This document shows, in pieces, positions 5,081-55,247 of a stretch of DNA of 64,000 nt; the stretch's first letter is position 1; each line of letters opens with the position of its first letter. The stretch covers positions 19,247-83,246 of the forward strand of contig JBDRUV010000005.1 in assembly GCA_039801505.1 (NCBI GenBank), given 5' to 3'. The stretch comes from a candidate division WOR-3 bacterium (lineage in GTDB: Bacteria; Hydrothermota; Tepidihabitantia; Tepidihabitantales; CAIPLT01). The position numbers and the translations under genes are program-made. Under the pieces are notes generated by a model. The model worked only from the letters and a program-made list of their open reading frames with translations. It had not been told where the DNA came from and searched no databases.

Positions 5081-5104
5081 GACCGTACCGTCCCCTGGAC
5101 GGTC
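5081..5104. repeat. GC-rich palindromic intergenic element, copy A (GACCGTACCGTCCCCTGGACGGTC)
   Basis: Member of the CCCCTGGACCGTAGGGG / GGGGATGGTC motif family described in the findings. Confidence 0.5.
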
Positions 5105-5364
5105 TAAATAAAATAATCTCTTGTCTTTTTTGTGGCAGGTTTTCTGCCGGCTTCTGGTAATTAAGCTTGGTTATTAGCCGGCCTGTGGTTGATGAGCCGG
5201 CAGAAAATAGCAGGTTTATAAGCCAAAACCTATGTGTGATAGGTGTTGTGCCGATAGAGTAATCGTGTTTAGCTTGCAAGAATAAATTGTAGATTATCGG
5301 TGGTAATTTCAGGCACGATAAATGGATTTTTAAATTAATCTTGGCTGTCACCAATTAGTCGCTG

Positions 5365-5393
5365 TTGAAATATCTTGAATATCGGTCTATAAT
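5365..5393 (+). promoter_or_regulatory. sigma70-type promoter TTGAAA-N17-TATAAT, 10 nt upstream of the uvrA ATG (leaderless arrangement)
   Basis: TTGAAA at 5365-5370 and TATAAT at 5388-5393. The ATG (MVNDF...) is at 5404. Confidence 0.5.
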
Positions 5394-5403
5394 AAAATAT
5401 TGT

Positions 5404-8223
5404 ATGGTGAATGATTTTATTGTGATCAAGGGTGCCCGTGTCCACAATCTCAAAAACATTACGGTTAAGATTCCTCGCAATAAACTGGTAGTGATTACAG
5501 GGATTTCCGGTTCGGGCAAATCATCATTGGCCTTTGATACAATTTATGCTGAGGGACAGCGTCGTTATATTGAATCTCTCTCAGCATATGCTCGGCAATT
5601 TTTAGGGATGCTTGACAAACCGGATGTTGATTACATTACTGGACTTTCCCCAGCAATTGCGATTGAACAACGAACTGCAGCAAAAAATCCACGTTCGACA
5701 GTTGCTACTGTGACTGAGATCTATGATTATCTTCGGGTGCTATTTGCCCGGATTGGTAAGCCCTATTGCCCCAATTGTCAGAAGCCAATAAGTTCTCAGG
5801 GCGTGGACTCGATTGTTGATACGGTACTTTCCTTATCCGATAATAAACGAGTTGCTATTTTAGCCCCGATTGTCCGGGGTCGAAAAGGTGAATACCGGGA
5901 TCTAATTGATAAGGTTAGGCGGAAAGGCTATCTCCGAGTACGCGTTGATGGTACTATTTACGACATAGAGACAGTTCCCAGTTTAGAAAAGTATAAAAAG
6001 CATAATATCGAAATTGTAATTGACCGGATAAGTATTCTTAAAGAAAATCGGCCAGAACCAGAAATTGTAAGTCTGCGCAAACGGATTGCTGATTCTGTGG
6101 AGCTAGCCTTAAAAGAGAGTGGCGGACTAATTGCGATTTCAGAAATTGATGAAACCGGCCAAACTACCAAAGAAGACCGAATCTTTTCTACAGCTTTTGC
6201 CTGTGTGGACTGTGGCTTTAGCTACGGCGAGATCTCACCGCGGCTTTTCTCGTTTAATGCCCCATATGGAGCGTGCCCGGTTTGTCATGGCTTAGGAATA
6301 AAAATGGAGGTCGACGAGGAACGCATTATTGCCAATCCGGACTTAAGTATCGTTGACGGTGCGATTGCCTCGTGGGGTGAGGTTACTAGTGAATGGTTTT
6401 TAGAGGAATTAGAAGAATTGGCTCGAAACTACAATTTTGATCTAAAGACCCCATGGAAAAAACTACCCAAGACCGTTAAAAATATTATAATATACGGTCC
6501 CGATGATGGATCATTTGAAGGTGTCGCACCACATATTATGAGACTTTATAATGAGACAGAATCAGATGCGGTACGGGAATGGGCTGAAAGATTTATGTCG
6601 GTGCTACCCTGTCCGACTTGTCAAGGTTCAAGACTTAAAGCTGAGGCGTTAGCCGTAAAGATTAATGAATTAAATATCGCTGACATTACCAAGATGTCGA
6701 TAAGCGAGGCTTACGAATTCTTTACACGAAAGATTCAGCTTACTGAGAAAGAAACTCTAATTGCTAAAGAAGTCATTAAAGAAATTACCCGTCGTTTAGG
6801 ATTTTTAATTTCCGTGGGACTTGATTATCTAACCTTAGATCGCCGGACCGATACTTTAGGTGGGGGCGAAGAACAACGGGTAAGACTGGCAACGCAAATC
6901 GGTTCCGGTCTGGTGGGAGTGATTTATATTTTAGACGAACCAAGCATTGGTCTGCACCAACGGGATAATCGTAAGCTTCTCCAAACTCTGCTTCAATTGC
7001 GAGATTTAGGCAATACCGTGATCGTCGTCGAGCATGATGAAGAAACAATCCGAAATGCCGATTATGTAATTGACTTAGGACCAGGTGCTGGGGAAAACGG
7101 CGGTCGGGTTGTCGCTTCAGGTACACCCGAGGAGATTATGAAAAATCCTCGGTCTCTTACCGGTGCTTATCTTAGTGGTCAAAAGACAATTTCTCTACCT
7201 GAAATTCGGCGTAAGCCCCGAGGCGAATTTTTAATTATTAAGGGAGCTCGGGAAAATAATTTAAAAAACATCGACGTCAAAATACCTTTAGGGCTTTTTG
7301 TCTGTATTACCGGAGTTTCTGGATCTGGAAAAAGTACTTTAATATTTGATATTTTATATAATAAATTGGCTCAAATATTTTATGACTCAAAAGTCCGAGC
7401 TGGTGCCCACGATACAATTCTTAATATTGATAAGATTGATAAAGTAATTAATATTGATCAGTCACCCATCGGTCGGACACCGCGATCTAATCCGGCGACC
7501 TATACCAATGTGTTTACCCCAATTCGAGAGCTTTTTGCCCAAACCAAGGAAGCCAAAATGCGTGGTTATAAACCCGGGAGATTTTCTTTTAATGTTTATG
7601 GGGGACGTTGTGAACGGTGTCAGGGGGATGGCATAATCAAAGTCGAGATGCATTTTTTACCACCAGTTTATATTCCCTGCGAAGAATGTCGTGGACGTCG
7701 ATATAATCGGGAAACCCTAGAAGTCAAGTATAAAGGTAAAAATATTTATGAAGTTTTAGAAATGTCTGTAAATGAAGCCTGTGAATTTTTCGCTAATATT
7801 CCGCCGATCAAACGCAAACTGGAATTACTAAAAGATGTTGGCTTAGGCTATATTAAATTAGGGCAGCCGGCACCAACGCTCTCTGGGGGTGAAGCGCAGC
7901 GAGTAAAAATTTCTAAAGAACTTTCCAAAATTGGGACCGGTCGGACCTTGTATTTGCTTGATGAGCCAACTACTGGTTTACATTTTGAAGATGTGAAATT
8001 ACTTTTGAACGTGCTAAATCGTCTGGTAGAAAAAGGTAATACTGTAGTGGTTATTGAGCACAATTTAGAAGTAATTAAATGTGCTGATTGGATTATTGAT
8101 TTAGGACCTGAGGGGGGAGAGCGTGGTGGTTATATTGTAGCCGAAGGCCCCCCTGAAGAAATTATTAAAGTCAAAAATTCATATACCGGCCAGTTTTTAA
8201 AACCCTTACTGAAAAAGCGATAA
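5404..8223 (+). CDS. uvrA: Excinuclease ABC subunit A
   Basis: Two ABC ATPase modules ([20 protein letters not shown]) and zinc-finger cysteines. The true start is taken as the ATG at 5404 because the ORF-track start at 5365 lies inside the promoter hexamers. Confidence 0.95.
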
Positions 8224-9282
8224 ATGAGAGAAAAAGTATTAGTGGCGATGAGTGGTGGGGTAGATTCCACAGTCGCCGCCTTGCTACTTAAGGAAAAAGG
8301 ATATGAGGTTTTAGGGGCTACCTTAATAACGAATGGCAATACTTTAAATAACTCTCAGTGGTTAATTGAGACTAATAACCGAATATGTAATTATCTTAAA
8401 ATCCCCTTGGAAATATTTGATGTTCGCGAGTTATTTAGGAAAACTGTGATTGACGAGTTTGTAAGGAATTATCTTCTTGGTATGACCCCGAATCCTTGCA
8501 TTAGTTGCAATCGGCTTATTAAGTTTGAATTTTTACTTTCCAAGGCAAAAGAACTTGGTGCCACGAAAATTGCTACTGGACATTATGCCCAAAATATTTA
8601 TGATACTCAAAGAAAAATTTGGTTACTAAAAAAGGGTGTTGATATCCAAAAAGACCAGTCTTATTTTTTATATACCCTAAATCAAAATTTGTTACCGCAT
8701 ATTTTATTTCCCTTGGGAGATCTAACCAAAGCCGAAGTCAAAAAAGTAGCTCAAAAAGCCGGTCTGAGTGAACTTGTCCGGCCAGAAAGTCAAGATATTT
8801 GCTTTATTCTCGGTGGCGATTATATAAAGTTCATTAAAGAATATGTTAGTTACTCACCACAACCCGGGCCAATCCGTAACCGCAACGATGAGGTCATTGG
8901 ACAGCACAAAGGAATAATTTATTACACAATTGGACAACGAAAAAGGATCGGGGTTGCCAATAAGACGCCACTTTATGTCACAAAAATTGATTATAGTAAT
9001 AATACAATTTATGTTGGCGAAGCCCATGAGGTTTATAACAAAAGTTTTTTAGTATCTAATCTTAGTTTTGTTTATCTGAATAAATTAGAAAGTCCGCTAT
9101 GGGTATCTACCAAGATCCGCTACACTCATATCCCAGCCCGCGCTCAAATAATTCCCCAAAATGATGAAGTTATGGTAGTTTTTGATGAACCCCAATGGGC
9201 GATAACACCTGGTCAAGCTGCCGTTTTTTACGATCAAGACATTGTAATTGGGGGAGGAATCATAAAAAAATTGTTTTCGTAA
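8224..9282 (+). CDS. mnmA: tRNA-specific 2-thiouridylase
   Basis: PP-loop SGGVDS and the NPCISCNRLIKF catalytic cysteine motif. 352 aa. TAAATG overlap with uvrA. Confidence 0.9.
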   Translation: MREKVLVAMSGGVDSTVAALLLKEKGYEVLGATLITNGNTLNNSQWLIETNNRICNYLKIPLEIFDVRELFRKTVIDEFVRNYLLGMTPNPCISCNRLIKFEFLLSKAKELGATKIATGHYAQNIYDTQRKIWLLKKGVDIQKDQSYFLYTLNQNLLPHILFPLGDLTKAEVKKVAQKAGLSELVRPESQDICFILGGDYIKFIKEYVSYSPQPGPIRNRNDEVIGQHKGIIYYTIGQRKRIGVANKTPLYVTKIDYSNNTIYVGEAHEVYNKSFLVSNLSFVYLNKLESPLWVSTKIRYTHIPARAQIIPQNDEVMVVFDEPQWAITPGQAAVFYDQDIVIGGGIIKKLFS

Positions 9283-9296
9283 ATGTACAAATGTTG

Positions 9297-9324
9297 TTGA
9301 CAAAACAAATTTTTTTTTTATAAT
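9297..9324 (+). promoter_or_regulatory. Near-consensus sigma70 promoter TTGACA-N16-TATAAT, 8 nt upstream of the nfnA ATG (leaderless arrangement)
   Basis: TTGACA at 9297-9302 and TATAAT at 9319-9324. The ATG is at 9333. Confidence 0.5.
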
Positions 9325-9332
9325 TTAAAAAT

Positions 9333-10181
9333 ATGTTTAAAATTTTATCGACTAAAGCATTGGCTCCAAATATAAAATGTTTTGAATTTGAAGCTCCCTA
9401 TATTGCACAAAAGGCCCAGCCTGGTCAATTTGTTGTTGTGCGTATAAACGAAACGGGTGAACGAATTCCCTTGACGATCGCCGACACGAAAAAGGATCAA
9501 GGTGTAGTTATTATTGTCTTTCAAGAAGTTGGCAAAACCACTAAATTATTAGGAACGCTAAAGGCCGGCGATTACGTATTAGATTTACTAGGTCCTTTAG
9601 GTAAACCCTCGGAGATAAAATATTACGGAACAGTAGTATGTATTGGGGGTGGGGTGGGGACGCCGGAAATATATCCAATTGCTCGAGCGCTTAAAGAAAT
9701 TGGCAATAAAGTTGTTACAATTATCGGTGCCCGAACTAAAGAATTGTTGATAATGGTTGAAGAGATGCGGTCAGTCTCGGATGAATTATACATTACGACC
9801 GATGATGGCAGTTACGGCACAAAAGGACTAGTTACTGATGAATTGAAACGGTTAATTTCTCAAGGAATTAAAATTGATAAAGTTTTTGCGGTTGGCCCGG
9901 TAATAATGATGAAGGCGGTGAGTGAGACAACTCGGCCTTATAATATTCCCACTGTGGTTAGTCTTAACCCAATTATGCTCGATGCTACCGGGATGTGTGG
10001 GGTATGCCGTGTTGAGGTTGGTGGTGAGACAAAATTTGCTTGTGTCGATGGACCAGAATTCGATGGCCATCAAGTAAATTTTGATACCTTAATGATGCGG
10101 CTCAAAACCTATCTAAAAGAGGAACGCGTTTCACTTGAGCTTTTCGAAAAGCAATCACATAAATGTTGTGGGGGACAATAA
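9333..10181 (+). CDS. NfnA / sulfide dehydrogenase beta-like subunit (PyrK-like FAD/NAD-binding, 2Fe-2S)
   Basis: 282 aa with a PyrK/GltD-partner fold and C-terminal cysteines (CGVCRV...C). Immediately followed by a gltD-like gene. Confidence 0.75.
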   Translation: MFKILSTKALAPNIKCFEFEAPYIAQKAQPGQFVVVRINETGERIPLTIADTKKDQGVVIIVFQEVGKTTKLLGTLKAGDYVLDLLGPLGKPSEIKYYGTVVCIGGGVGTPEIYPIARALKEIGNKVVTIIGARTKELLIMVEEMRSVSDELYITTDDGSYGTKGLVTDELKRLISQGIKIDKVFAVGPVIMMKAVSETTRPYNIPTVVSLNPIMLDATGMCGVCRVEVGGETKFACVDGPEFDGHQVNFDTLMMRLKTYLKEERVSLELFEKQSHKCCGGQ

Positions 10182-11578: not shown

Positions 11579-11589
11579 GGAGGAATAAA

Positions 11590-11832
11590 ATGGTGGCTAC
11601 AGCGTATGTTTTAATAACTGTGGCTCATGGCATGGCCCGTAAGGTTTACGATGAGTTATCGAAAGTCGATGGCGTAGCCCAAGTTCATGCTATTGCAGGA
11701 CCTTATGATATTATTGCGATTGTCCAGGCACGTGATTTTAATGCGATTGGTAATCTTATCATTAATAAAATTCAACCGATAGAAGGTATTGAGCGAACTT
11801 TAACTTGTAACGTTATAGAATTTGAACAATAA
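11590..11832 (+). CDS. Stand-alone Lrp/AsnC-family C-terminal RAM (ligand-binding) domain protein
   Basis: About 80 aa with the AsnC C-terminal fold (VLITVAHG...VHAIAGPYDIIAIVQA). AGGAGG Shine-Dalgarno 8 nt upstream of the ATG at 11590. Sits between nfnB and gdhA. Confidence 0.6.
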   Translation: MVATAYVLITVAHGMARKVYDELSKVDGVAQVHAIAGPYDIIAIVQARDFNAIGNLIINKIQPIEGIERTLTCNVIEFEQ

Positions 11833-11836
11833 ATAG

Positions 11837-13189
<1,353 letters not shown>

Positions 13190-13227
13190 CAAATTTTACA
13201 TAATAAAACTTTAGGGCATCCTCCATT

Positions 13228-14223: not shown

Positions 14224-14243
14224 TTAAAATAATAGAGGAGACT

Positions 14244-14483
14244 ATGACCGAAGAGGTAAAAAGGAAAATTAAAGAAACAATAGAAAATAAAATTCGACCC
14301 AATCTCGTTGCCGATGGTGGGGATATTGAACTTGTGGAAATTACCGATACTGGGGTGGTTAAGGTGAGACTCAAAGGCAGATGCGGTAGTTGTCCATTTT
14401 CCCAACTGACATTAGCATTAAGTGTTGAAAAAACTTTAAAGGACGAAATTTTAGAAGTAGAAAGAGTCGAGTTAGTTGCATAA
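14244..14483 (+). CDS. NifU-like (Nfu) Fe-S cluster scaffold domain protein
   Basis: 79 aa with the Nfu signature GGDIELVEI...LKGRCGSCPFSQ. Confidence 0.75.
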   Translation: MTEEVKRKIKETIENKIRPNLVADGGDIELVEITDTGVVKVRLKGRCGSCPFSQLTLALSVEKTLKDEILEVERVELVA

Positions 14484-14489
14484 CCGAAT

Positions 14490-15509
14490 ATGCCTGAAAG
14501 AAAGAAAATAATTACCAGTGGTATGAGACCCACTGGGAGCCTACATCTTGGTAATCTAATCGGGGCCCTAGAGAATTGGGTAAAATTACAAAATAATTAT
14601 CAATGTTTTTATTTTATTGTTGACTGGCATTCTCTAACGACTCCGGGTTCGGTAAATTCTGTAGGATACCAATACACCGATAAGCTGGCTGATAATATTT
14701 ATCAAATGGCCCTTGATTGGTTAAGCGCCGGGCTTGACCCTAATCGTTCAATAATTTTTATCCAATCCCATGTACCCGAAGTTGCTGAGTTGTTTCTATT
14801 ATTAGGAATGATCACGCCATTAGGTTGGTTAGAGCGAAATCCCACATACCGAGAAATGCTTGAGGATTATAAGATCGAATACCCGACATACGGGCTTTTA
14901 GGGTATCCAACCCTTCAAGCAGCTGATATTCTAATTTACAAAGGAGAATATGTGCCAGTAGGTAAAGACCAGGAGTCTCATGTGAATTTAGCCAGAGATA
15001 TTGCCGGCCGATTCAATAACATATACGGTAAAAACGTTTTTCCACTACCCGAACCACTTCTGACCCAAATGCCCAAAGTCCCCAGTTTAGATAATCCCAA
15101 TAAAAAAATGAGTAAAAGTAGTGGAAATTATATCGCAATCGCTCATACTCCTGAAGAGACAACCGAGCGTGTGAAAAATATGTTTACTGATCCCACAAAG
15201 ATTAGAAAAAACGATATAGGACATCCCGACGGATGCGTTGTATTTAGTTTTCATGTGATTTACAGCAAAGATAAAATTAACACTATTCGTATAGAATGCG
15301 AGACAGGCAAAAGAGGCTGTGTTGACTGCAAGATGGAATTAGCTGATGCCATGAATAATGCGCTTTCGGTAATAAGAGAACGCCGTAAAGAACTAGCAAG
15401 TAAACCACAGTTTATCAAAGAAGTTTTATTAGATGGCGCGCAAAAAGCCCGTTTAGTTGCTCAGCAAACATTATCGGAAGTAAAAGATGTAATGAAACTT
15501 AAGTATTAA
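14490..15509 (+). CDS. trpS: Tryptophanyl-tRNA synthetase
   Basis: Class I HIGH-like motif (GSLHLGNLIGAL) and KMSKS. 339 aa. Confidence 0.9.
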   Translation: MPERKKIITSGMRPTGSLHLGNLIGALENWVKLQNNYQCFYFIVDWHSLTTPGSVNSVGYQYTDKLADNIYQMALDWLSAGLDPNRSIIFIQSHVPEVAELFLLLGMITPLGWLERNPTYREMLEDYKIEYPTYGLLGYPTLQAADILIYKGEYVPVGKDQESHVNLARDIAGRFNNIYGKNVFPLPEPLLTQMPKVPSLDNPNKKMSKSSGNYIAIAHTPEETTERVKNMFTDPTKIRKNDIGHPDGCVVFSFHVIYSKDKINTIRIECETGKRGCVDCKMELADAMNNALSVIRERRKELASKPQFIKEVLLDGAQKARLVAQQTLSEVKDVMKLKY

Positions 15510-15522
15510 CAGCTTTTATTCC

Positions 15523-17055: not shown

Positions 17056-17057
17056 AT

Positions 17058-18320
17058 TTATTTTTTAATTATTTTCGTGATATCATTAAAAAAGGCGAAA
17101 ATTACAAGTAACCCAACGATGGCATAGCCTAAATAAAATGCGATTTCCCATATTTTTTTGCTAAATCGTTTCTTTATAATACTTTCAATGCCATATAGTA
17201 AAAATCGACCGCCGTCCAAAATCGGAATAGGAAAAAGATTAATGACACACAAATTGATGGAAAGTACTGACCACAATCCTAATAAATATTTAATTCCCCA
17301 TTGAGCTCCTTCGTAAGTTAATTTTCCGACCATTACCGGCCCACCGATTGAAGATTTGGAAATTTCTCCAATAATTACTTTATAGATTATCACAAAAGTT
17401 TGAACTGCCACATATATTGTACGTTCCGTCGATGCAATAAACGCCTGAATTATTGACAATTTTTTTTCAGGAAGTTTAACCCAGACCCCAATAACACCGC
17501 GTTTTTGCGTCCCTATTTCATCCTTGGTAAATGAAATCTCAATACTATCTTCGTATGTATTATTTCCTCTCTGCCATTTTATATAACGTTTTGTAGCACT
17601 TGACGTTCGAATAAGTTCAGTGAATTGGTACCAATCATGAATAGGAATATCGTCAACCTGTAAGATTCGATCGTCTTTTTTAAGGCCGATTTTTTCTGCC
17701 GGACTTTGTTTTTTGACAATATCAATTACCGGTTCAAGATACGGCCTAAAAAAAATGGATTCTGGTCTATTCGGTATATTTACTGAAATTGTTACCATAT
17801 TTTCATTTCGTTTTACTATAAAAGTTACAGATTGGTCTGAGTATTTAGCTATAAGTTTTTCTAAAGTCATCCAATCAGGTGCTGTGTCGTTATTAATTTT
17901 AATAATTTCATCGGCGAGCTGCAAACCATATTCTTCTCCCTTGGTATCCGGCACAATTTTAGTACCAAAGGTTGAAATTCCAAAAATACCATATAAAGCC
18001 CAAGTTAAAATTATTCCCAAAAGTAAATTGAAGGTCGGGCCGGCTAATATTACTAGCGCCTTTTTACTTAACGGAGCAACATTAAAACCATAATTAGCAC
18101 TAATTTCGTCGCCAGATAGTTTAATATAGCCACCTAAAGGAATTAGTGATAGTCGATATTCGGTTTCCTTGAAGCGTTTTTTTAGCAGGACTGGACCAAA
18201 TCCCACAGAAAACTGTTCAACAGGTAAAGCACATAGTTTGGCTAAAATTAAGTGCCCAAATTCATGAACAATTATAAGCGAACCGATAACAATTGCTACT
18301 AAAATTATTGATGAGAACAT
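17058..18320 (-). CDS. rseP: RIP site-2 zinc metalloprotease
   Basis: HEFGHLILAK motif, PDZ domain, C-terminal TM segments, 420 aa. Overlaps dxr as in the conserved dxr-rseP operon. Confidence 0.85.
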   Translation of the reverse strand: MFSSIILVAIVIGSLIIVHEFGHLILAKLCALPVEQFSVGFGPVLLKKRFKETEYRLSLIPLGGYIKLSGDEISANYGFNVAPLSKKALVILAGPTFNLLLGIILTWALYGIFGISTFGTKIVPDTKGEEYGLQLADEIIKINNDTAPDWMTLEKLIAKYSDQSVTFIVKRNENMVTISVNIPNRPESIFFRPYLEPVIDIVKKQSPAEKIGLKKDDRILQVDDIPIHDWYQFTELIRTSSATKRYIKWQRGNNTYEDSIEISFTKDEIGTQKRGVIGVWVKLPEKKLSIIQAFIASTERTIYVAVQTFVIIYKVIIGEISKSSIGGPVMVGKLTYEGAQWGIKYLLGLWSVLSINLCVINLFPIPILDGGRFLLYGIESIIKKRFSKKIWEIAFYLGYAIVGLLVIFAFFNDITKIIKK

Positions 18321-19468
18321 ATTAGTTTTTCAGCAAAATTTCTTGCAGTTTTTTCCCACCTTATAAGTTCGTCTAATTGTGGGTCTTTTATTGAAGGTGC
18401 CCAATAAAGTGTTTTCTTGATAATTTGCGGTATCGCCGAAAATTTGATCCGACCCTCAAGAAAGTTTTTCACTGCTACTTCATTAGCAGCATTATATACA
18501 CAGGGAGCTATACCATCAAGCTTTAATGCTTCATAAGCTAATTTAAGGGCTAAAAAACGACGAAAATTCGGCGAATAAAATTCTAAACTTCGATATGATG
18601 TAAGATTTAGACTATTAGTTTGTGATTCAAACCGTCGCGGGTAGGTTAAGGCATATTGAATACAAAGTTTCATATCTGGTTGGGACAACTGGGCAATTAT
18701 TGAATGGTCCTTAAGTTCAATCAATGCATGAATAATGCTCTGCGGGTGAATTAAAACTTGAATTCTATCTCCTGATATTTCAAAGTATCGCGCAGTTTCG
18801 ATAACTTCTAATCCTTTATTAGCTAGTGTTGCAGAATCAATTGTAGTTTTAGGCCCCATTTTCCAGGTTGGGTGCTTGAGAGCTTCTTTAATCGTAATGT
18901 TTTTAAAATTACTCCGACGCCAAAATGGACCCCCTGATGCCGTAATAATTATCTTTTTTATTTCACTTGCTTTATGCCCCTGTAGACATTGATGAATCCC
19001 GACAAGCTCAGAATCAATTGGTAAAAGCACTGTATTATATTTTTTGACTCGTTCCATAATAATTTTACCAAAACTCACCATTAATTCTTTGGTAGCCAGT
19101 AAAATTCGCTTACGCTCTTCAATGGCCTTGAGGAAAGGCATAATGCCTTCGGTACCTGTCATTGCCATCACAAAGTATTCAACCTTTGGATCCGTGGCAA
19201 GTTCGGTAAGCCCCTTTGAGCCCCATATAACTTTGGGAATTGGCCCCTGGAGTTTTTTTAAGAGCGCTAGTAATTTTTCTTTAGTTTCTTCATCTTGAGT
19301 TACAACAACTTTCGGATTAAACAAACAAATTTGTCGGGCAAGTAATTTGTAATTATATTTGCTGGCCAAGGCATAAACCGAAAATAACGACTTTAAATGT
19401 TTTATCACCTCTAGGGTCGATTGTCCGATTGATCCGGTGGCACCAATTATCGCTACTTTTTTCGCCAT
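18305..19468 (-). CDS. dxr: 1-deoxy-D-xylulose 5-phosphate reductoisomerase
   Basis: VAIIGATGSIGQSTL N-terminus, 387 aa, full-length Dxr similarity. Confidence 0.9.
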   Translation of the reverse strand: MAKKVAIIGATGSIGQSTLEVIKHLKSLFSVYALASKYNYKLLARQICLFNPKVVVTQDEETKEKLLALLKKLQGPIPKVIWGSKGLTELATDPKVEYFVMAMTGTEGIMPFLKAIEERKRILLATKELMVSFGKIIMERVKKYNTVLLPIDSELVGIHQCLQGHKASEIKKIIITASGGPFWRRSNFKNITIKEALKHPTWKMGPKTTIDSATLANKGLEVIETARYFEISGDRIQVLIHPQSIIHALIELKDHSIIAQLSQPDMKLCIQYALTYPRRFESQTNSLNLTSYRSLEFYSPNFRRFLALKLAYEALKLDGIAPCVYNAANEVAVKNFLEGRIKFSAIPQIIKKTLYWAPSIKDPQLDELIRWEKTARNFAEKLICSHQ

Positions 19469-20127
19469 AACTTGTAAATAAATAGTAAGTCGTCTTTCTC
19501 AGTAATTTTTATATTAGTCTTTTCACCTCGGAAGGTATACACAGGGACGCCAAAGCGTTCAATAATTCCTGAATCGTCACTTTGATAAATATTATGTTTA
19601 TACGCATACTCATAGGCTTTTTTAATTAGGGTAATATCAAAAAATTGCGGAGTTTGAACATAATAAAGTGAGGAGCGGTCTAGCGTCTTTATAACTATGT
19701 GGTTTTTTATTTCCTTTACCGTATCATAAATCGGCAATACTGGGATACACGCCTGGTATCTTTTTACATAAAAAAATCCTTTTTTTATCAAATCTAGCGA
19801 CACCAGAGGCCGTGCGGCATCATGAATTGCCACATATCCGGTATCTGGTAGTAAGCTAAGGGCATTATTAACCGAATCCTGGCGTTCCTTGCCACCAGTG
19901 ATTACGGCACGAACTTTATTAAACTGACATTTTACCACAAGTTTTTTAAGATAAGAAACTTTTTCTTTTAAAGTAACTAGAATAATACTTTTCACTAATG
20001 GGGACTTGTTAAATTGAGCTACTGAATAATAAATCAATGGTTTTTTATCCAGTAATACGAATTGCTTTTGTCGTCCAAATCTTCGAGCTTGGCCAGCAGC
20101 TAAAATAATTGCAAAATTCATTGCCAC
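19453..20127 (-). CDS. ispD: 2-C-methyl-D-erythritol 4-phosphate cytidylyltransferase
   Basis: AIILAAGQARRFG nucleotidyltransferase motif, 224 aa. Heads the ispD-dxr-rseP operon. Confidence 0.85.
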   Translation of the reverse strand: MAMNFAIILAAGQARRFGRQKQFVLLDKKPLIYYSVAQFNKSPLVKSIILVTLKEKVSYLKKLVVKCQFNKVRAVITGGKERQDSVNNALSLLPDTGYVAIHDAARPLVSLDLIKKGFFYVKRYQACIPVLPIYDTVKEIKNHIVIKTLDRSSLYYVQTPQFFDITLIKKAYEYAYKHNIYQSDDSGIIERFGVPVYTFRGEKTNIKITEKDDLLFIYKLWRKK

Positions 20128-20216
20128 TATTATATTTTATTTACTATTAAAAGTCAATTAGAAATCTTAATACGTTATAGGTTCACTTTACTTAGCGTCT
20201 AAAATAATTCTTGTAA

Positions 20217-20245
20217 TTGACTTTTCAACGTTTCTTAATTAAATT
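20217..20245 (+). promoter_or_regulatory. Promoter TTGACT-N17-TAAATT, 7 nt upstream of the purM ATG (leaderless arrangement)
   Basis: TTGACT at 20217-20222 and TAAATT at 20240-20245. The ATG (MKPQKAEAYK) is at 20253. Confidence 0.4.
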
Positions 20246-20252
20246 TTTATAT

Positions 20253-21287
20253 ATGAAGCCCCAAAAAGCCGAGGCTTATAAAAATGCCGGAGTTGATATC
20301 GAATTTACCTCAAAGCTTAAGTCTCAGATTAAAAGGCTGGTGCCCAAAACATTTAACGACTACGTGCTTTCTGGTATTGGACTTTTCGGTGGACTTTACC
20401 AAATCCCCGACCCGAAATCATCCAATGTCTTAGTTGCTAGTTGTGATGGAGTGGGCACCAAGCTGTATATTGCGCAAATGATGAACAAACACGATACGGT
20501 AGGCGAAGATATTGTTAATCACTGTGTTAATGATATTTTGACCTTAGGTGCCCGACCGCTTTTTTTTCTTGATTATATCGGTTATTCTGATATTAGTGCG
20601 AAAGTTATGGCCGAAATTATTAAAGGCTTAACTAAGGCCTGTCAAAAAAATGGCTGTGCCCTAATCGGTGGCGAGACAGCAATGATGCCCGGAATGTATG
20701 AACCGGGTCGATATGAACTTGTCGGGTTTATTGTTGGAATTGTTGATAAAAAAAGAATTATTGACGGTCAGAAAATTAAAGTCGGTGATTACTTAGTTGG
20801 ATTACCATCATCTGGGCTTCATACCAATGGTTATTCGTTGGCGCGGAAAGTGTTATTTGAAGACCATAAGCTTAGTGTCGATACGATATTATCAGAACTT
20901 AAAAAACCACTTGGTGAAGTACTTCTAGTGCCACATCGTTCTTACCTTCAGGAAGTCAGTAAGGTATTAGATCTGCTTACCGGAATTGCGCATATTACCG
21001 GCGGTGGTTTTTATGAAAACATTAGCCGGATCTTACCTGCTGGCACTTCTTGTGTGATTAACCGTTACCGTTGGAAGGTGCCCGAAATTTTCCAGGTGAT
21101 TCAAAAATTAGGAAATATTAGTACCGAAGAAATGTATCAGGTATTTAATATGGGGATCGGAATGGTGCTATTTGTTCGACCGAAGAGCTTAAATATAATA
21201 TTAAAAAAACTACCCCAAGCCCAAATAATTGGTCGAGTAGTTAAAGGCCGATTTGGCGTAAAAGTGGCGGACTACGATGCCGAATAA
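20253..21287 (+). CDS. purM: Phosphoribosylformylglycinamidine cyclo-ligase (AIR synthase)
   Basis: AIRS N- and C-domains (DGVGTKL). The start is taken at MKPQKAEAYKNAGVDIE rather than the upstream in-frame ATG, which lies within the promoter. Confidence 0.9.
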   Translation: MKPQKAEAYKNAGVDIEFTSKLKSQIKRLVPKTFNDYVLSGIGLFGGLYQIPDPKSSNVLVASCDGVGTKLYIAQMMNKHDTVGEDIVNHCVNDILTLGARPLFFLDYIGYSDISAKVMAEIIKGLTKACQKNGCALIGGETAMMPGMYEPGRYELVGFIVGIVDKKRIIDGQKIKVGDYLVGLPSSGLHTNGYSLARKVLFEDHKLSVDTILSELKKPLGEVLLVPHRSYLQEVSKVLDLLTGIAHITGGGFYENISRILPAGTSCVINRYRWKVPEIFQVIQKLGNISTEEMYQVFNMGIGMVLFVRPKSLNIILKKLPQAQIIGRVVKGRFGVKVADYDAE

Positions 21288-23145: not shown

Positions 23146-23181
23146 CCCGATACGGTCTAGGGGATCGTCTCCTTACGTATC
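23146..23181. repeat. GC-rich palindromic intergenic element, copy F (CCCGATACGGTCTAGGGGATCGTCTCCTTACGTATC)
   Basis: ACGGTCTAGGGGATCGTC core flanked by the 6-bp inverted repeat GATACG/CGTATC. Confidence 0.5.
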
Positions 23182-27612: not shown

Positions 27613-27619
27613 AAAGACT

Positions 27620-27922
27620 ATGATTGAGAAGGACAAAACATCGGAAGAGAAAAGTCGTGTCCATATAATCGTGTCTGGAAAGGTTCAAGGGGTGTTTTTT
27701 AGAGATTTTACCCGACGGCATGCCCGACAACTAGGACTTACCGGCTGGGTGAGGAATCTTCCTTCAGGCGATGTGGAAATTATTGCTGAAGGAACTAAGC
27801 AGAAACTTTTGGCGCTAATTGAAGCTGTAAGGATTGGTCCCCAGTTTGCCCAGGTCACTGATTGCAAAATAACCTGGAATGACTATAAAGGAGAGTTTGA
27901 AGATTTTACAATCAGATATTAA
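27620..27922 (+). CDS. acyP: Acylphosphatase
   Basis: VHIIVSGKVQGVFFRDFTRRHA...GWVRNLPSGDVEI signature. The start is taken at the ATG at 27620 after the upstream stop. Confidence 0.8.
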   Translation: MIEKDKTSEEKSRVHIIVSGKVQGVFFRDFTRRHARQLGLTGWVRNLPSGDVEIIAEGTKQKLLALIEAVRIGPQFAQVTDCKITWNDYKGEFEDFTIRY

Positions 27923-27947
27923 TTAAAAATATTAGCAGTTTTTAATT

Positions 27948-29946: not shown

Positions 29947-30037
29947 CGGAGAGGGTGGGATTCGAACCCACGGCACGGTTTTACCCGTGCGACCGCTTAG
30001 CAAGCGGGCGCCTTAGACCTATCTCGGCCACCTCTCC
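29947..30037 (-). tRNA. tRNA-Ser (anticodon GCT)
   Basis: The reverse complement GGAGAGGTGGCCGAGATAGGTCTAAGGCGCCCGCTTGCTAAGCGG...GGTTCGAATCCCACCCTCTCCG folds as a cloverleaf with a long variable arm, anticodon loop TTGCTAA and a TPsiC loop GGTTCGAATCC. Confidence 0.85.
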
Positions 30038-30061: not shown

Positions 30062-30148
30062 CGGAGGGCGGGGGATTCGAACCCCCATTCCCATTGCTGG
30101 GAGCCGGATTTCAAGTCCGGTGCCTTACCAAATTAGGACTAGCCCTCC
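30062..30148 (-). tRNA. tRNA-Ser (anticodon TGA)
   Basis: The reverse complement GGAGGGCTAGTCC...CCGGACTTGAAATCCGG...GGGGGTTCGAATCCCCCGCCCTCCG has a long variable arm and anticodon loop CTTGAAA. Confidence 0.85.
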
Positions 30149-30390
30149 GGCACAAAAATATTTTTCAAAGAGCCATTATAAATATAAGATACTAAATTTT
30201 TCACAAAAGTCAATCAGTTTGTGAAACATTTCACCCAGTGTTTAGTAACTTAAGCGGTCTCGACTCGGTAACTTCTTATTTGTAATCGTTAGATAAACCA
30301 ACATAATACCGAAGTGATATCCAAAATGGCCCGAGGTCACCAAAGAAATTATTAGACAGCACAAAATTCTTATTCCTAGCGACTGATCAA

Positions 30391-30433
30391 CCCCTGGACC
30401 GTAGGGGTAAGCGTATAGGGGATGGTCTACTGG
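30391..30433. repeat. GC-rich palindromic intergenic element, copy E (CCCCTGGACCGTAGGGGTAAGCGTATAGGGGATGGTCTACTGG)
   Basis: Contains the perfect hairpin CCCCT-GGACCGT-AGGGG plus the GGGGATGGTC unit. Best-preserved copy. Confidence 0.55.
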
Positions 30434-35880: not shown

Positions 35881-35891
35881 AGCTCCTCCTT

Positions 35892-38676: not shown

Positions 38677-38745
38677 GTAATAAATATAATAATAATCACA
38701 ATTACTATGAGTGTCAAGTTTAATTGCTTAAAAACTCGTCCGCTT

Positions 38746-38774
38746 CCCCCTACGGTCCCGGGACGGTCCGGGGG
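38746..38774. repeat. GC-rich palindromic intergenic element, copy B (CCCCCTACGGTCCCGGGACGGTCCGGGGG)
   Basis: Two inverted ACGGTCC units within a CCCCC/GGGGG closing stem. Confidence 0.55.
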
Positions 38775-39031
38775 TTAGCCGGTTGGTCAAGCAGATAGCA
38801 GTCAGCCTAAGCCTGTGCTGATTAGAAAAGCACCAACTGCCGATACTGGATGCAGGGTGGTTTAGGTCAAATAGTTTAGATCTTCTAACTAGTTTATTTC
38901 AGGCAATTCCCACACATTAGGTAGTAAACTGTTTATTGCCACCAGTAAATTTTATTTACTTCTCGTGAAGAGTATAACTACCCGAAGCTGAGCGGTAATA
39001 AAGTTTGTTATTAGCCGGTTGAAAATAACTA

Positions 39032-39059: not shown

Positions 39060-39072
39060 ATAGCAAAGTATT

Positions 39073-40539: not shown

Positions 40540-40553
40540 TAAGGAGGGTAAAA

Positions 40554-42221: not shown

Positions 42222-42234
42222 GGGGAGGGTAGCT

Positions 42235-42633
42235 ATGAAAAAGATAAGAATTCTGATTGCGAAACCAGGTTTAGATGGTCATGACCGTGGTGCTAAGGTT
42301 GTGGCCCGAGCCTTGCGCGATGCTGGTTTTGAGGTTATTTATACTGGTTTACATCAGACCCCGGAGATGATTGTTAATACCGCAATTCAAGAAGACGTTG
42401 ATGCTATCGGCCTTTCGATACTATCCGGAGCACACATGACGATTTTTCCTGAGGTGCTTAAATTGCTTAAGAAGAAAAAAGCCACCGATATTCTGCTTTT
42501 CGGTGGTGGCATTATTCCTGAGGATGACAAAAAGAAGCTATATAAATTAGGCATCGGTCGACTATTTGGTCCGGGTACCGATACGAAAGAAATTATTGAT
42601 TATTTGAAAGAATATTTTAAAATCACAGATTAA
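42235..42633 (+). CDS. Methylmalonyl-CoA mutase, B12-binding (C-terminal) subunit
   Basis: 132 aa with the DxHxxG cobalamin-binding motif ([12 protein letters not shown]). GGGGAGGG Shine-Dalgarno. Confidence 0.85.
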
Positions 42634-42660
42634 ATAACAAAATCTCTCTAGAAGGCACAT

Positions 42661-44211: not shown

Positions 44212-44223
44212 TAAGGAGGCATT

Positions 44224-45717: not shown

Positions 45718-45873
45718 ACTAATTAAACGATCCTAGAAAACCTAGGTTAACACTCAAATTTCTAAAGGCGAGCCGCACGCGCTTATAAGCTAAGCGTTAA
45801 GTTGTTTCATACTAGGTTTTCGCTATACAAAATGTTATAAGAACCGTCCCTATTTTAATAAGCATAAATTGTC

Positions 45874-45927
45874 CTAGGGGACCATCCCCGGGACGCTTAC
45901 CGGTAGCATCCCCGAGACCGTAGGTAA
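45874..45927. repeat. GC-rich palindromic intergenic element, copy D, opposite orientation (CTAGGGGACCATCCCCGGGACGCTTACCGGTAGCATCCCCGAGACCGTAGGTAAG)
   Basis: Aligns to the reverse complement of copy E over GACCATCCCC...ACGCTTACC...CTACGGTC. Contains the 6-bp CTTACC/GGTAAG inverted repeat. Confidence 0.55.
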
Positions 45928-45981
45928 GAAAAGATGGGGCAGAGCCGGGACTTGAGCGTGATCTTTTTTAGGGTTTTTCCC

Positions 45982-46003
45982 AACCGAAAATCGGTTTTAT
46001 TTA
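45982..46003 (+). terminator. Intrinsic terminator-like hairpin AACCGAAAATCGGTT followed by TTATTTAT
   Basis: Perfect 6-bp stem with a 3-nt loop and a T-rich tail on the plus strand, about 265 nt after the ALDH stop and about 55 nt after repeat copy D. Confidence 0.4.
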
Positions 46004-46032
46004 TCCGAAGTCCCAGAATCTCTGCCCGCATT

Positions 46033-47622: not shown

Positions 47623-47640
47623 TTTATTTTATGCTCCAAT

Positions 47641-48432: not shown

Positions 48433-48471
48433 AACACCTCACTTTTATAATATATTATACACAAAAAACTC

Positions 48472-49350: not shown

Positions 49351-49356
49351 TAAAGG

Positions 49357-50451: not shown

Positions 50452-50456
50452 AACAT

Positions 50457-51713: not shown

Positions 51714-52495
51714 TGCTTATTTTCCTCAGTTTTCGGAATTTCATATAATAGACAACAACGTAGCTTTGAACAAACGCCAGAAAGTTTTTCCGGTTCAAAG
51801 ACAATATTAGCCTCCCGGATTTTGGCCAAGGTCACCGGCGGTATGTTTTTTAGAAAACTTTCGCAACATAACAGCCGGCCACAGATCCCGATCCCCCCCA
51901 CGGCCCGGGCATGGTCCCGGGTACCGACCTGTTTAATCTCAACCCGCGTCTTTAGAGTTTCAGAAGCTTGTTCATGAAGTAGCTGATAGTTAATCTTCTG
52001 CGGTGAGGTGAAATACACATAGATTTTATAACGATTGAGCGAAATATCTAGACAGACAATTTTGGCCGGCAGCTTAAACTCCCGCAGCAGATCCTCAAAA
52101 AATGTTTTAAGTCGGGGCATCTCTTTTTCTAAATTTGCTCGTAAGGCGAGATCCTCCTCAGTGGCGATTCGAATGATTTGGCAGAAATCAGGAGCGTGAT
52201 CGGTTCGATTGAATCCTGGTTCATAATGCAGATGGGGGAGATACCGGGTATAATGTTGCGTAATAGTTTCCGTATAGTTCTCGTCATAAAAAAACTTTTG
52301 CTTAGTTAGAGTGCCTAGAAGCAACTCTTTACCACAAAGGATAACCAGTTGGGTGTTCAAGGACCACTCAAATGTTTTTGCCGAACTCATTACAAAATAC
52401 TCCCGGCGAAACGGATTTATCTTTACCTCATACAAAGCAGCCTTAGCCGCTTTTGTTTGGCAGCTATCAGGATGAATTTGGCGTCTTTGCGTCAT
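51710..52495 (-). CDS. PSP1 C-terminal domain protein (RicT/YaaT-like)
   Basis: Closely matches the YaaT conserved core (ATEEDLALRANLEKE...GGIGICGRLLCCESFL...SGVCSKLRCCLLYE). 261 aa. Confidence 0.8.
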   Translation of the reverse strand: MTQRRQIHPDSCQTKAAKAALYEVKINPFRREYFVMSSAKTFEWSLNTQLVILCGKELLLGTLTKQKFFYDENYTETITQHYTRYLPHLHYEPGFNRTDHAPDFCQIIRIATEEDLALRANLEKEMPRLKTFFEDLLREFKLPAKIVCLDISLNRYKIYVYFTSPQKINYQLLHEQASETLKTRVEIKQVGTRDHARAVGGIGICGRLLCCESFLKNIPPVTLAKIREANIVFEPEKLSGVCSKLRCCLLYEIPKTEENKQ

Positions 52496-52501
52496 CGGGT
52501 T

Positions 52502-53824
52502 TTATTGTAGCTCTTCTAACTCTAAAGGATCGATATATTTTTCCCAGTTGGGTGGTTTGGTTTCGCGGTCGCTATTAGTGTAAATGAGACGGAAGTTATT
52601 ATCACCTCGAATATCGACAAAAATAAATTGTAATCCTTGTTCATAGTAATACCAGTGTTCGTGCGGCTTAGTATGCTCAACCATGGTATGAACAACTACT
52701 TCATCGGGTCGACCATATTTTATATAAATTCGACCACGATCAGTATTACGGCCCAAGAGTCGACCAACCTTGTAGTGCTCATCAGCATAGTTTATGCGCT
52801 CTTTAATTTCAGTAAAGTTATGCCCGCGCCAATATCGGCGGAGATACTCAAGTTTTCCTTGTTCAGTAAGGCGCTTGTACTGTTTCTGTTCATTTTCGGA
52901 AGCAACCATCTTAAAAATTTCTTCAGCTTCTTTAGCATCAAAGGGCAATGGTTGAACACTGCTAACTTTTTGCGGAGTAATAATCGAAAAACTTTTAGAC
53001 TTCTGGACCTGCTGATTAGTTGATAGGTCTTTTAAGGTTACCTCCAGAAGATATTGGTCCGGCGGCAGTCCTTTGGTATTTAAGGCAAAAGTATGCGCAA
53101 AATTACTACCGGTCTTGGTGATAACCTCCGGTGGTAGATCTTTAATCGGTTCGTTGTGGCGATTTAGGATCCGGTATCTGAGTTCATAAGGATTGCTATC
53201 AGCCACCAGATTATACCCTTCTAGATACGCATACAAAATACCATAGGCTTCACCAAACTCATTTCCCGGATTGGGAATGATGCGTACACCGCCCTTGGTA
53301 AATTTCGAAAAACCGCTGTCCGGGGTTATCAGTGATGCCAAGGTAATGTCACTTAAAGCCAATTTATCAGTATAGGGCAAAATCTCTAACGTGTCGATGT
53401 AGCTCAAGGTTTTTTGGGCTGTGGGCAATACTGTCAGAGTTAATTTTAAAAGATACCGGCCAGGCTCAGCGATAAAGCGATATACATCTAAGATTTTTAG
53501 ATCTTTGGCTTCGGCAATCTGAAATGAGGGCAGAATAATCCGGTGGCTTGCGGTTTCGCTGAGGCTCTGTTCGGTCGTGAGGTTTTTAAGATAAATATTC
53601 TTATGATAACGCCCAACAATAGTTTCGTTTTCCACTTGATAGTCAAAATCATAATAGGGAGCTGAAAAATACAGTTCGACTAATGATAAGTGTAAAGTGT
53701 CAGGCTGGGACAAGTTGTATTTAAAATTGGCCCAATCAACTGATAACTCACGCCCCTGAAGTATTGCTACATCGATAAGCACGAGACTTAATAAGAGAAG
53801 AAAGAATTTTTTAAGCTCGCTCAT
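52502..53824 (-). CDS. Secreted GWxTD-domain protein (paralog B)
   Basis: Signal peptide and a C-terminal GRNTDRGRIYIKYGRPDEV...HWYYYEQGLQFIFVD matching the GWxTD domain (TIGR04514-like). 440 aa. Confidence 0.6.
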   Translation of the reverse strand: MSELKKFFLLLLSLVLIDVAILQGRELSVDWANFKYNLSQPDTLHLSLVELYFSAPYYDFDYQVENETIVGRYHKNIYLKNLTTEQSLSETASHRIILPSFQIAEAKDLKILDVYRFIAEPGRYLLKLTLTVLPTAQKTLSYIDTLEILPYTDKLALSDITLASLITPDSGFSKFTKGGVRIIPNPGNEFGEAYGILYAYLEGYNLVADSNPYELRYRILNRHNEPIKDLPPEVITKTGSNFAHTFALNTKGLPPDQYLLEVTLKDLSTNQQVQKSKSFSIITPQKVSSVQPLPFDAKEAEEIFKMVASENEQKQYKRLTEQGKLEYLRRYWRGHNFTEIKERINYADEHYKVGRLLGRNTDRGRIYIKYGRPDEVVVHTMVEHTKPHEHWYYYEQGLQFIFVDIRGDNNFRLIYTNSDRETKPPNWEKYIDPLELEELQ

Positions 53825-55047
53825 ATCCGTTGCTCCGCATATAAAGTATATTCGCCAAATCCATGCAAGTCTAAGAAAATAAACTTCTTGCCAATGCTAT
53901 AATAATACCAGATCTCGGAGGCATAGTAGTAGGGTTCAAAGGGTTGCCGGTCAATATGGTCCGGTTCTCCGTATTTCATGTAGATGCGAGCTCGATCCGA
54001 ACGATAACCGCGGTCACCTCGGGAAAAGTTTTCCTCACAATAACGGATTTTAGCAAAGTATTCTTGCTCGGTCAATTTCAAGCGACCATGGGGATCAAAT
54101 TGGGCCCAAAAAGTTCGCCAGGTCGATTCCCGGGCTTGGGGTGGGACTTTTTTTAGCTTTTTCAGTTCAGCCTCTGAGGCAATATAAATTAAACGATTAA
54201 CCAATTCTTTGTAGATATCATCGTCTTCAAAGACACTACCTTTAATCTTAAAAGATTTCGCGGCCGAAAAGACTAATTGTCCTTGATTGTCATATCCCTT
54301 AGCCACAACCTGATAATTGCCGGCTTTAAGATTCGAGATTTGCGCCGGCTCGGGATTATAATAATACACATTAGGTGTCTTCTCCAATGCCAGCGCCAAT
54401 TGGGTGCTAATGATTGTTGGACACTTTGGATCTTCAGAGCAAATTATTAACGAACACGTTTGAGCATTGCTTTGTGGTAGGTAAATTCTTATACCTAAAG
54501 TCTCAGTCGGAAGTGCTGACTTTAGATATATCCGTGAAGGATTAATTTGACGATTTTTATCCAGAGCAAGATACACATCTTGGGCATGGCGCACAATCGG
54601 CAAGGTAACCTTATATATCCGAGATGAAATCTGGTCTGAAAGTTCTAGCTGACAACTAAGATTACTTCGCGGGGCCTCCGGGTTGTAGAATTTCAACTCA
54701 ACGCTGTCAAGATGCGACTGGTCATAACTTAAGGTTTGCTCGTAAGTCGGCACTTGAAACGATTTCGAAAATAGTTGCTCGGTCAGTAATTGTCGTTTGG
54801 AGAACAACCGGACAATAACGGTATGGCGGTTGGTAAAATTTACGCTGTCTTTATAAAAGAAAAGCTTACCATAAGGAATGTCGTAGAAAATCTTTAAGCT
54901 TGTTAGAGCTTCGCTAACTGGCATAAAATAATACTCGTAGTTTCGTAAAACTGCCGTATCCTGATATGCAGGGAAATAATCAAGATAAGACTGCGCCCAT
55001 AGCGCGGTTATTATCACCAAAAAGCCACAAAGCATGCGGGAGTTCAT
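53821..55047 (-). CDS. Secreted GWxTD-domain protein (paralog A)
   Basis: Signal peptide and a C-terminal GYRSDRARIYMKYGEPDHI...EIWYYYSIGKKFIFLD GWxTD-like domain. 408 aa. 4-nt overlap with paralog B. Confidence 0.6.
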   Translation of the reverse strand: MNSRMLCGFLVIITALWAQSYLDYFPAYQDTAVLRNYEYYFMPVSEALTSLKIFYDIPYGKLFFYKDSVNFTNRHTVIVRLFSKRQLLTEQLFSKSFQVPTYEQTLSYDQSHLDSVELKFYNPEAPRSNLSCQLELSDQISSRIYKVTLPIVRHAQDVYLALDKNRQINPSRIYLKSALPTETLGIRIYLPQSNAQTCSLIICSEDPKCPTIISTQLALALEKTPNVYYYNPEPAQISNLKAGNYQVVAKGYDNQGQLVFSAAKSFKIKGSVFEDDDIYKELVNRLIYIASEAELKKLKKVPPQARESTWRTFWAQFDPHGRLKLTEQEYFAKIRYCEENFSRGDRGYRSDRARIYMKYGEPDHIDRQPFEPYYYASEIWYYYSIGKKFIFLDLHGFGEYTLYAEQRI

Positions 55048-55215
55048 TTCTTAATATAAGTTTACCAGAAATATTGCTTCTCGTCAACTCTTAAATTTAG
55101 CCTGGGGCTCTTAAACTACCGTTTTATCTGGTTATACACTCAATAATAACACCCCTTGACTCTTACTCGCCGATAATTACTTATTTTTAATAATTTTTGC
55201 CTGCTTATTGGGATC

Positions 55216-55247
55216 CGTGTAGGGGACGGTCCCATGCCTATAGGGCT
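55216..55247. repeat. GC-rich palindromic intergenic element, copy C (CGTGTAGGGGACGGTCCCATGCCTATAGGGCT)
   Basis: Shares GTAGGGG...TATAGGG spacing with copy E and GGGACGGTCC with copy B. Confidence 0.5.

Follow-up and report, generated by a model that had tools for sequence, protein, structure and literature searches.

GC-rich arrays of a 12-nucleotide unit in the long intergenic gaps of a candidate division WOR-3 bacterium

Repeat arrays at seven intergenic loci

Six long intergenic gaps in a 64-kb stretch of DNA from a candidate division WOR-3 bacterium (contig JBDRUV010000005.1 of assembly GCA_039801505.1; the whole stretch, with a GC content of 40.9%, is referred to here as the window) each carry one copy of a short, GC-rich repeat array. 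The six gaps have a GC content of 33-44% and sum to 2,274 nt, or 3.6% of the window. A seventh copy lies to the left of the window, in 8.5 kb of flanking DNA supplied by a contig of the same species (L074, 99.96% identical), and window and flank together form the 72.5 kb of readable DNA for this species. Each copy is made up of two to four 12-nt units arranged head to tail, with the consensus (G/C)TAGGGGAYGGTC, and some of the units are inverted. The arrays constitute a genuine, extragenic and non-chance family of repeats that resembles the repetitive extragenic palindromes (REPs) of other bacteria and has a narrow distribution. They most likely act on DNA. The seven copies and their settings are as follows.

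Copy A, 5081..5104, no strand assigned: GACCGTACCGTCCCCTGGACGGTC; best unit on the minus strand at 5086-5097, CAGGGGACGGTA, matching at 10/12; flanked by the divergent promoters of queA and uvrA, with 143 nt to the -35 box of queA and 261 nt to that of uvrA.
Copy F, 23146..23181, plus strand: TCCCGATACGGTCTAGGGGATCGTCTCCTTACGTAT, with the unit TAGGGGATCGTC at 23158-23169 (11/12) and the half unit GATACGGTC before it; 154 nt past the PolX stop codon and ~136 nt ahead of the -35 box of a Na/Pi transporter gene (promoter read by eye).
Copy E, 30385..30433, plus strand: on this strand the exact 12-mer TAGGGGATGGTC at 30416-30427, with the degenerate unit GGGGTAAGCGTA before it.
Copy E, minus-strand part, 30385-30407, minus strand: inverted pair CCCCTACGGTC-CA-GGGGTTGATC; copy E lies between the divergent promoters of a tRNA-Ser and a mannose-1-phosphate guanylyltransferase gene, with the nearest -35 box at 120 nt.
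Copy B, 38741..38776, plus strand: CGCTTCCCCCTACGGTCCCGGGACGGTCCGGGGGTT, with a period of 11 nt and one additional internal unit; located upstream of two -35 boxes, that of an NHL-repeat gene (at 29 nt) and that of cobA (at 258 nt).
Copy D, 45874..45927, minus strand: four period-12 units, on the minus strand ACCTACGGTC, TCGGGGATGCTA, CCGGTAAGCGTC and CCGGGGATGGTC; flanked by convergent genes for an aldehyde dehydrogenase and a DUF4139 protein.
Copy C, 55216..55247, plus strand: CCGTGTAGGGGACGGTCCCATGCCTATAGGGC, with the exact 12-mer TAGGGGACGGTC at 55220-55231; 86 nt past the end of a clostripain-family gene and 129 nt upstream of the -35 box of a GWxTD gene.
Copy G, in the L074 gap 14789-15273, minus strand: CCCGGACCGTCCCCAATACCGTCCCCTACACGGTCTGGGGGTT, with two 11/12 units, on the minus strand TAGGGGACGGTA and TTGGGGACGGTC; between divergent tRNA-Ala and rnfC genes, with the nearest -35 box at 51 nt.

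Enrichment of the repeat in long gaps

A first-pass annotation had reported GC-rich strings at six of these loci and had argued that their recurrence could not be due to chance; all of the strings are present where it placed them, and the counts bear out the argument. The core common to the six copies is the 10-mer GGGGAYGGTC. With at most one mismatch it is found 11 times in the window, compared to a mean of 3.6 in shuffled sequence, and none of 100 shuffles reaches 11. Six of these matches fall in the six gaps, one in each, and the other five are in coding DNA, which is approximately the level expected by chance. For the 12-mer TAGGGGAYGGTC, a threshold of at least 10 matching positions out of 12 gives six occurrences in the gaps as opposed to four in the remaining 61.7 kb of the window; at 11 or more positions there are three in the gaps and none in the remaining 61.7 kb. 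Exact occurrences are found at 30416-30427 (copy E) and 55220-55231 (copy C). Similarly, the 8-mer ACCGTCCC is found four times in intergenic DNA and not once in coding DNA, and a detector of word clusters recovers five of the six loci and no other place in the 64 kb. Placement of the arrays is strictly extragenic, with 7/7 copies intergenic and no clusters in ~66 kb of coding DNA.

The notion that every long non-coding gap contains one copy and the short ones none also holds, as gaps of 91 nt or less are without a copy. The remaining apparent gaps of more than 250 nt turn out to be coding: 11579-11848, 14224-14489 and 27613-27947 are small genes (for an AsnC-like protein, NifU and an acylphosphatase), and 408-1487 is part of a gene that extends past the edge of the window. 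The boundaries of one gap needed correction. Gap A had been taken to end at 5364, but it runs to 5403 (4902-5403, 502 nt) because the TTG start of an open reading frame at 5365 is really the uvrA -35 box; the promoter, TTGAAA-N17-TATAAT, spans 5365-5393, and database gene calls start the 939-aa uvrA product at 5404. Gap A has the same length of 502 nt in a related genome, GCA_033582495.1 (L078). The rule extends to DNA that had not been seen when it was proposed: the sole long gap in the 8.5 kb of left flank (L074 14789-15273) holds copy G.

Anatomy of the 12-nt unit

The direct 12-nt period is the main regularity of the arrays. Pooled self-identity is 0.41 at a shift of 12, compared to 0.22-0.31 at every other shift, and the maxima of shuffled sequences average 0.31 +/- 0.016, with none of 2000 shuffles attaining 0.41. 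The elements had initially been described as palindromic, and partial palindromes are indeed present because some of the units are inverted, but it is the direct period rather than any single palindrome that orders them. ACGCTTACC, one of the sequences quoted in the first-pass annotation, reads on the opposite strand as a degenerate unit. The tetranucleotide NTAG precedes GGGGAY in 8 of 13 units (GTAG four times, CTAG three times, ATAG once).

The copies are related to one another by more than the consensus. The reverse complement of E matches B at 20/22 positions, and D aligns with the reverse complement of E over GACCATCCCC-N3-ACGCTTACC at 19/22; the next module, CTACGGTC, is inverted in D relative to E and bracketed there by CTTACC/GGTAAG. 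C and E do share GTAGGGG and TATAGGG, with spacers of 13 nt (C) and 6 nt (E) rather than the 8 nt first suggested. In addition, ACCGTCCCCTACACGG is identical in C and G, which are not orthologous. This similarity is limited to a core of 30-55 nt, and alignments of the flanks are no better than those of shuffled sequence. A longer body of the kind found in miniature inverted-repeat transposable elements (MITEs), suggested by a 123-nt alignment of the A and C gaps, was rejected on these grounds. Hairpins of 4-7 bp can be drawn in every copy, with a register that differs among copies and folding z-scores from about +0.4 to -2.9.

Genomic setting and transcription

Near-consensus sigma-70-type promoters sit close to the gene starts. 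The copies occur in both orientations, as was noted at the outset, and in all gene arrangements: A, B, E and G lie between divergent genes, F and C between co-directional genes, and D between convergent ones. In the four divergent gaps, the element is located between both -35 boxes, 29-261 nt from either. The elements in A, B, E and G are thus predicted to lie outside both flanking transcripts and are probably untranscribed, because they are upstream of both divergent -35 boxes. The distance to the nearest -35 box is 120-143 nt in four of the six promoter-adjacent copies (A 143, E 120, C 129, F ~136), with B at 29 nt and G at 51 nt; this cluster was recognized post hoc from few loci and may be a coincidence. 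The genes neighboring the copies have no common function.

The suggestion that the elements are not simple terminators is supported by the lack of a T-tract after any element, and no terminator-like site coincides with any of them. Nor do they match a described RNA family, as an Rfam search of the gaps is empty both at the gathering threshold and at E-values up to 5.

Conservation in related genomes

The window's species also includes GCA_039801585.1 and GCA_965649175.1, and none of the 75 differences among the assemblies of the species is inside an element. The close relatives are represented by fragmentary metagenome-assembled genomes; in SKYB20, JAVQRP and JAOABS the orthologous gaps hold a copy or a remnant of one. 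For five loci, the same intergenic site was occupied before the related species split. In SKYB20, a WOR-3 genome with a PolX that is 90% identical, the core TTCCCGATACGGTC[T/C]AGGGGAT of the F ortholog is identical at 23/24 positions. Of all 20-nt windows in the gap it scores highest in conservation (0.95, compared to a gap mean of 0.46), equaling the downstream promoter. In the JAVQRP genome GCA_033582495.1 (UvrA 89% identical), the queA-uvrA gap retains GGACGGTCT with the left arm replaced, and this retained segment is part of an exact 12-mer, CTAGGGGACGGTC, in the register of the other strand. In the more distant GCA_026418235.1 (78% identity in MeaB), the regions around E, B and D are perfectly syntenic, with gaps of equal size. 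Only remnants of the arrays are left there, for example CTGATACGGTCCAGTGGAT in gap B, and their GC-rich character is lost.

No arrays are found in a total of ~286 kb made up of relatives at 80-87% UvrA identity, in which the neighborhoods are rearranged, and of more distant WOR-3 contigs. The exact 12-mer is present in 4 of 100 loci compared, three from the window's species and the fourth from L078. A query of the Joint Genome Institute (JGI) metagenomes with PolX returned only distant relatives (at most 65% identity) that are without elements, and the closest relative found of the guanylyltransferase beside E is 72% identical.

Comparison with known repeat systems

REPs are imperfect palindromes of 20-40 bp with a stem that is usually 6-13 bp, present in more than 100 copies per genome and accompanied by a RAYT (a Y1 HUH transposase) gene that is flanked by repeats. 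In operator or iteron arrays, short boxes are repeated in tandem, as in the met-boxes of MetJ, the iterons of plasmid parC/ParR and the direct repeats bound by PhoB/OmpR. MITEs, such as Correia, RPE and Nezha, have a body of 100-400 nt, terminal inverted repeats and a target-site duplication. The WOR-3 arrays can be compared to each of these.

The closest described class is that of the GTAG-tagged REPs and the mosaic elements (BIMEs) built from REPs (Di Nocera et al. 2013, PMC3733652; Nunvar et al. 2010, PMC2817692). Like these, the WOR-3 elements are short (30-55 nt), GC-rich relative to the genome, strictly extragenic and partly palindromic, with units that are single or clustered and both direct and inverted. 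They are also lineage-restricted with sub-families, and in some units NTAG/GTAG abuts a short G/C stem, for instance GTAG-GGGAC-G-GTCCC in C and CTAG-GGGGA-CCA-TCCCC in D. Unlike these, the WOR-3 arrays are ordered by a head-to-tail period of 12 nt and not by one defined stem-loop, their stems are only 4-7 bp and variable, and the copies are far more heterogeneous. GTAG is conserved in more than 90% of the members of published REP families (PMC3733652), whereas the WOR-3 units show NTAG in 8/13 and GTAG in four. Published REPs furthermore lie mainly downstream of genes, between unidirectional or convergent ones (PMC3733652), and 4/7 of the WOR-3 copies lie between divergent promoters instead. 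The local density is seven copies per 72.5 kb. As copy number and a RAYT partner are defining features of REPs, and the WOR-3 family is judged from 72.5 kb, it is classified as REP-like and not as a member of the REPs.

With operator and iteron arrays, the WOR-3 arrays share the arrangement of two to four short motifs at about one helical turn upstream of promoters, as well as a core that is conserved at the orthologous sites of F and, in part, A at ~90% protein identity, though not at those of B, D and E at 78%. They differ in that their neighbors follow no regulon logic, that one copy is in a convergent 3' region and that non-consensus modules are common to several loci, and the sequence by itself points to no cognate protein. 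The likeness to MITEs is that of any dispersed, non-coding, intergenic, multi-copy element; terminal inverted repeats, target-site duplications and a 100-400 nt body are all lacking, similarity stops at the core, and there is no presence/absence polymorphism. The early description of the elements as REP- or MITE-like repeats thus survives in its first part only.

Interpretation

The favored explanation is that the arrays are REP/BIME-like short extragenic repeats of a narrow WOR-3 lineage that are fixed in position and recognized as DNA by a protein. It is given a probability of somewhat below one half (about 0.45), and it is preferred because it accounts for the shared modules, the occupancy of orthologous gaps and the retention of the unit. 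Non-orthologous copies share idiosyncratic, non-consensus modules that are far longer than one unit, which argues that the copies arose by copying of a common element. The occupied orthologous gaps indicate that the elements are old and positionally stable. The unit is kept at ~90% protein identity while the surrounding spacer is essentially randomized, which suggests that something recognizes it. The unit would then be the DNA-level recognition site of a trans-acting protein binding side by side along the array. One candidate is a RAYT-type HUH transposase that would act on hairpins tagged with GTAG and would once have been the enzyme spreading the repeats; another is a host protein that may now be using the arrays, by analogy with the use of BIMEs by IHF and gyrase. 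The arrays occupy the spacers at operon boundaries, where they are probably not transcribed. The proposal that they are sites for a DNA-binding protein, put forward in the first-pass annotation as an alternative to a dispersed repeat, survives beside it, and the two are not mutually exclusive.

Several observations weigh against this explanation. The stems are short and their register varies, and the setting of 4/7 copies in divergent promoter spacers is unlike that of classical REPs. No transposase domain, including that of RAYT, is found among the genes of the 72 kb of window and left flank. A scan of the GTDB representative genomes with TTMCCSMTACGGTCYMGGG, a set that does not include the window's species, yielded 66 scattered single matches, which is about the chance level, and the sole informative one is the F ortholog in SKYB20. 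No gain, loss or polymorphism of copies is seen in SKYB20, JAVQRP, JAOABS or the conspecific assemblies, so that the case for mobility is made by the shared modules alone. At 78% protein identity, elements B, D and E are conserved no better than their gaps, and therefore either selection is weak or the trans-acting factor has been lost or changed in that lineage.

A possible if unlikely explanation is that the arrays serve a lineage-specific global regulator, or a nucleoid-associated "boundary" protein, as operator- or iteron-like sites. Such a protein would bind cooperatively at a spacing of about one helical turn upstream of promoters, and the sites would have arisen and been maintained purely by selection for binding and not by mobile copying. 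The 12-nt period fits this idea, as does the variation in number and orientation of the 10-12 nt core. Every long spacer has a single array, located in each case outside the core promoters, with the post hoc cluster of 4/6 copies at 120-143 nt from a -35 box, and the F core stands out from its surroundings by a conservation similar to that of the adjacent promoter. Copy A even shows what resembles turnover of a site, with CAGGGGACGGTA on the minus strand in the window and TAGGGGACGGTC on the plus strand in JAVQRP. Non-orthologous copies, however, share degenerate modules exactly (D and E have ACGCTTACC in common, C and G CCCCTACACGG), and these point to common descent rather than to convergence. 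Copy D, moreover, is between convergent genes and without a promoter, the neighboring genes lack a common function, and the motif is missing from relatives at 80-87% UvrA identity.

It is doubtful that the arrays are neutral, decaying relics of an old REP-like or minisatellite burst that have survived in long spacers only since these tolerate extra DNA. The heterogeneity of the copies and the degeneracy of their units are consistent with decay, the distance and orientation to genes are not fixed, and in the comparison with the relative at 78% identity the elements fare no better than their gaps and lose their GC-rich character. Decay does not readily explain why the F core is identical at 23/24 positions amid flanks at ~46% identity, why an exact 12-mer is kept at the A ortholog, or why the gaps of the window contain three exact or near-exact 12-mers when the other 61.7 kb contain none at 11/12 or better.

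In a further reading, which must be considered improbable, the arrays might be the binding sites of a previously unknown, lineage-specific chromosomal protein that marks or insulates operon boundaries; one way of doing so would be to control supercoiling where promoters diverge.

The idea that the elements are a family of small structured RNAs, raised in the first-pass annotation, fares worst, and a role as cis-acting RNA hairpins (stabilizers of mRNA 3' ends, unusual terminators or processing sites) or as small RNAs is highly improbable. In most gaps the folding energy reaches its local minimum at the element or close to it, with z-scores of about -3 to -4 in some windows, gap A being an exception in which the adjoining hairpin at 5138-5210 is more stable. 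F, C and D are downstream of genes, and RNA would tolerate the plus-strand G-T pairs of F and of the A ortholog. Fold and register nevertheless vary by copy, z-scores are modest overall, B and E fold no better than shuffled sequence, the stems are not followed by a T-tract, Rfam is empty even at E-values up to 5, and four of the seven loci (A, B, E and G) are located between divergent -35 boxes, hence probably on neither flanking transcript. Riboswitches (preQ1 beside queA, cobalamin beside cobA) have no support in Rfam, Rho-utilization sites and G-quadruplexes were dropped by eye as the copies are not consistently C-rich and G-poor and have too few G-tracts, and a CRISPR-like origin was rejected, the regions without gene calls in the relative L006 being unrelated repeats of 100-280 nt.

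Other features of the gaps and relatives

Several gaps hold additional features that are distinct from the arrays. A large hairpin adjacent to the element was considered as a feature of all gaps, and was found in A, D and G only. In gap D, directly to the right of the copy, 45937-46030 forms a long-stem hairpin of ~95 nt (GGGCAGAG...CTCTGCCC, inner stem AACCGAAAATCGGTT) that folds far beyond shuffled sequence, with z-scores of -4.1 (plus strand) and -5.6 (minus strand), and has no match in Rfam. L075, the relative at 78% identity, conserves it to 85-95%, which makes it by far the best-kept part of the gap. Situated where the aldehyde dehydrogenase and DUF4139 genes converge, it could be a small RNA or a terminator that works in both directions. 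In gap A, 5138-5210 contains a perfect 13-bp inverted repeat (TTTTCTGCCGGCT / AGCCGGCAGAAAA) around a structured loop of 42 nt (minimum free energy -35.5 kcal/mol, z -3.9) that is not conserved in the 89%-identity L078. In gap G, L074 15116-15195 is a strongly structured segment (GGCCTATCCGACTAG...CTAGTTGGATAGGCT, z -6.2) between the copy and the rnfC promoter, with a promoter-like TTGATA...TATAAT just upstream, and it may be an unannotated small RNA or leader.

Gap A also has an AT-rich palindrome, AAATGTTACTTATAAATAACATTT, at 4993-5020, ~55 nt upstream of the queA -35 box. It ranks with the best-conserved 20-nt segments when the window is compared to L078 (0.85), and may be an operator. A second short repeat, unrelated to the GC-rich family, is shared by gaps A and B: GGTAATTAAGCTTGGTTATTAGCCGG (5156-5181) and GGTAATAAAG-TTTGTTATTAGCCGG (38994-39018) match at 23/26, and each of these long copies is upstream of a plus-strand gene, uvrA and cobA. 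TTAGCCGGTTG occurs twice in gap B, at 38775-38785 and 39011-39021. On the plus strand, 29947-30000 and 30062-30112 give sub-threshold Rfam matches to "Plastid-psbl-rps4 3UTR" that are antisense to two tRNA-Ser genes, and these are almost certainly an artifact of tRNA-like sequence in the Rfam model. Finally, L006 (81% UvrA identity) has two stretches of ~3 kb without gene calls, 7167-10000 and 17580-20949, neither of which is a CRISPR array; the former consists of diverged direct repeats of 100-280 nt and is probably a missed gene for a repetitive surface protein.

Significance

As bacteria commonly carry dispersed short palindromic repeats, the finding is of moderate rather than high interest. 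WOR-3 is an uncultured phylum for which, to our knowledge, neither repeat families nor regulatory motifs have been described. A well-defined 12-nt unit that is present in every long inter-operon spacer would provide a handle for annotating operon boundaries, a marker for binning and strain typing, and a bait with which to find a protein that binds it. Should there be a RAYT partner, REP systems would reach a new phylum, with an atypical architecture of tandem units. If there is no RAYT and the sites are maintained by the host, they would point to an unknown DNA-binding system, and should the arrays be bound by a protein that marks operon boundaries, they would represent a new kind of genome-organizing system and not selfish REP-like DNA.

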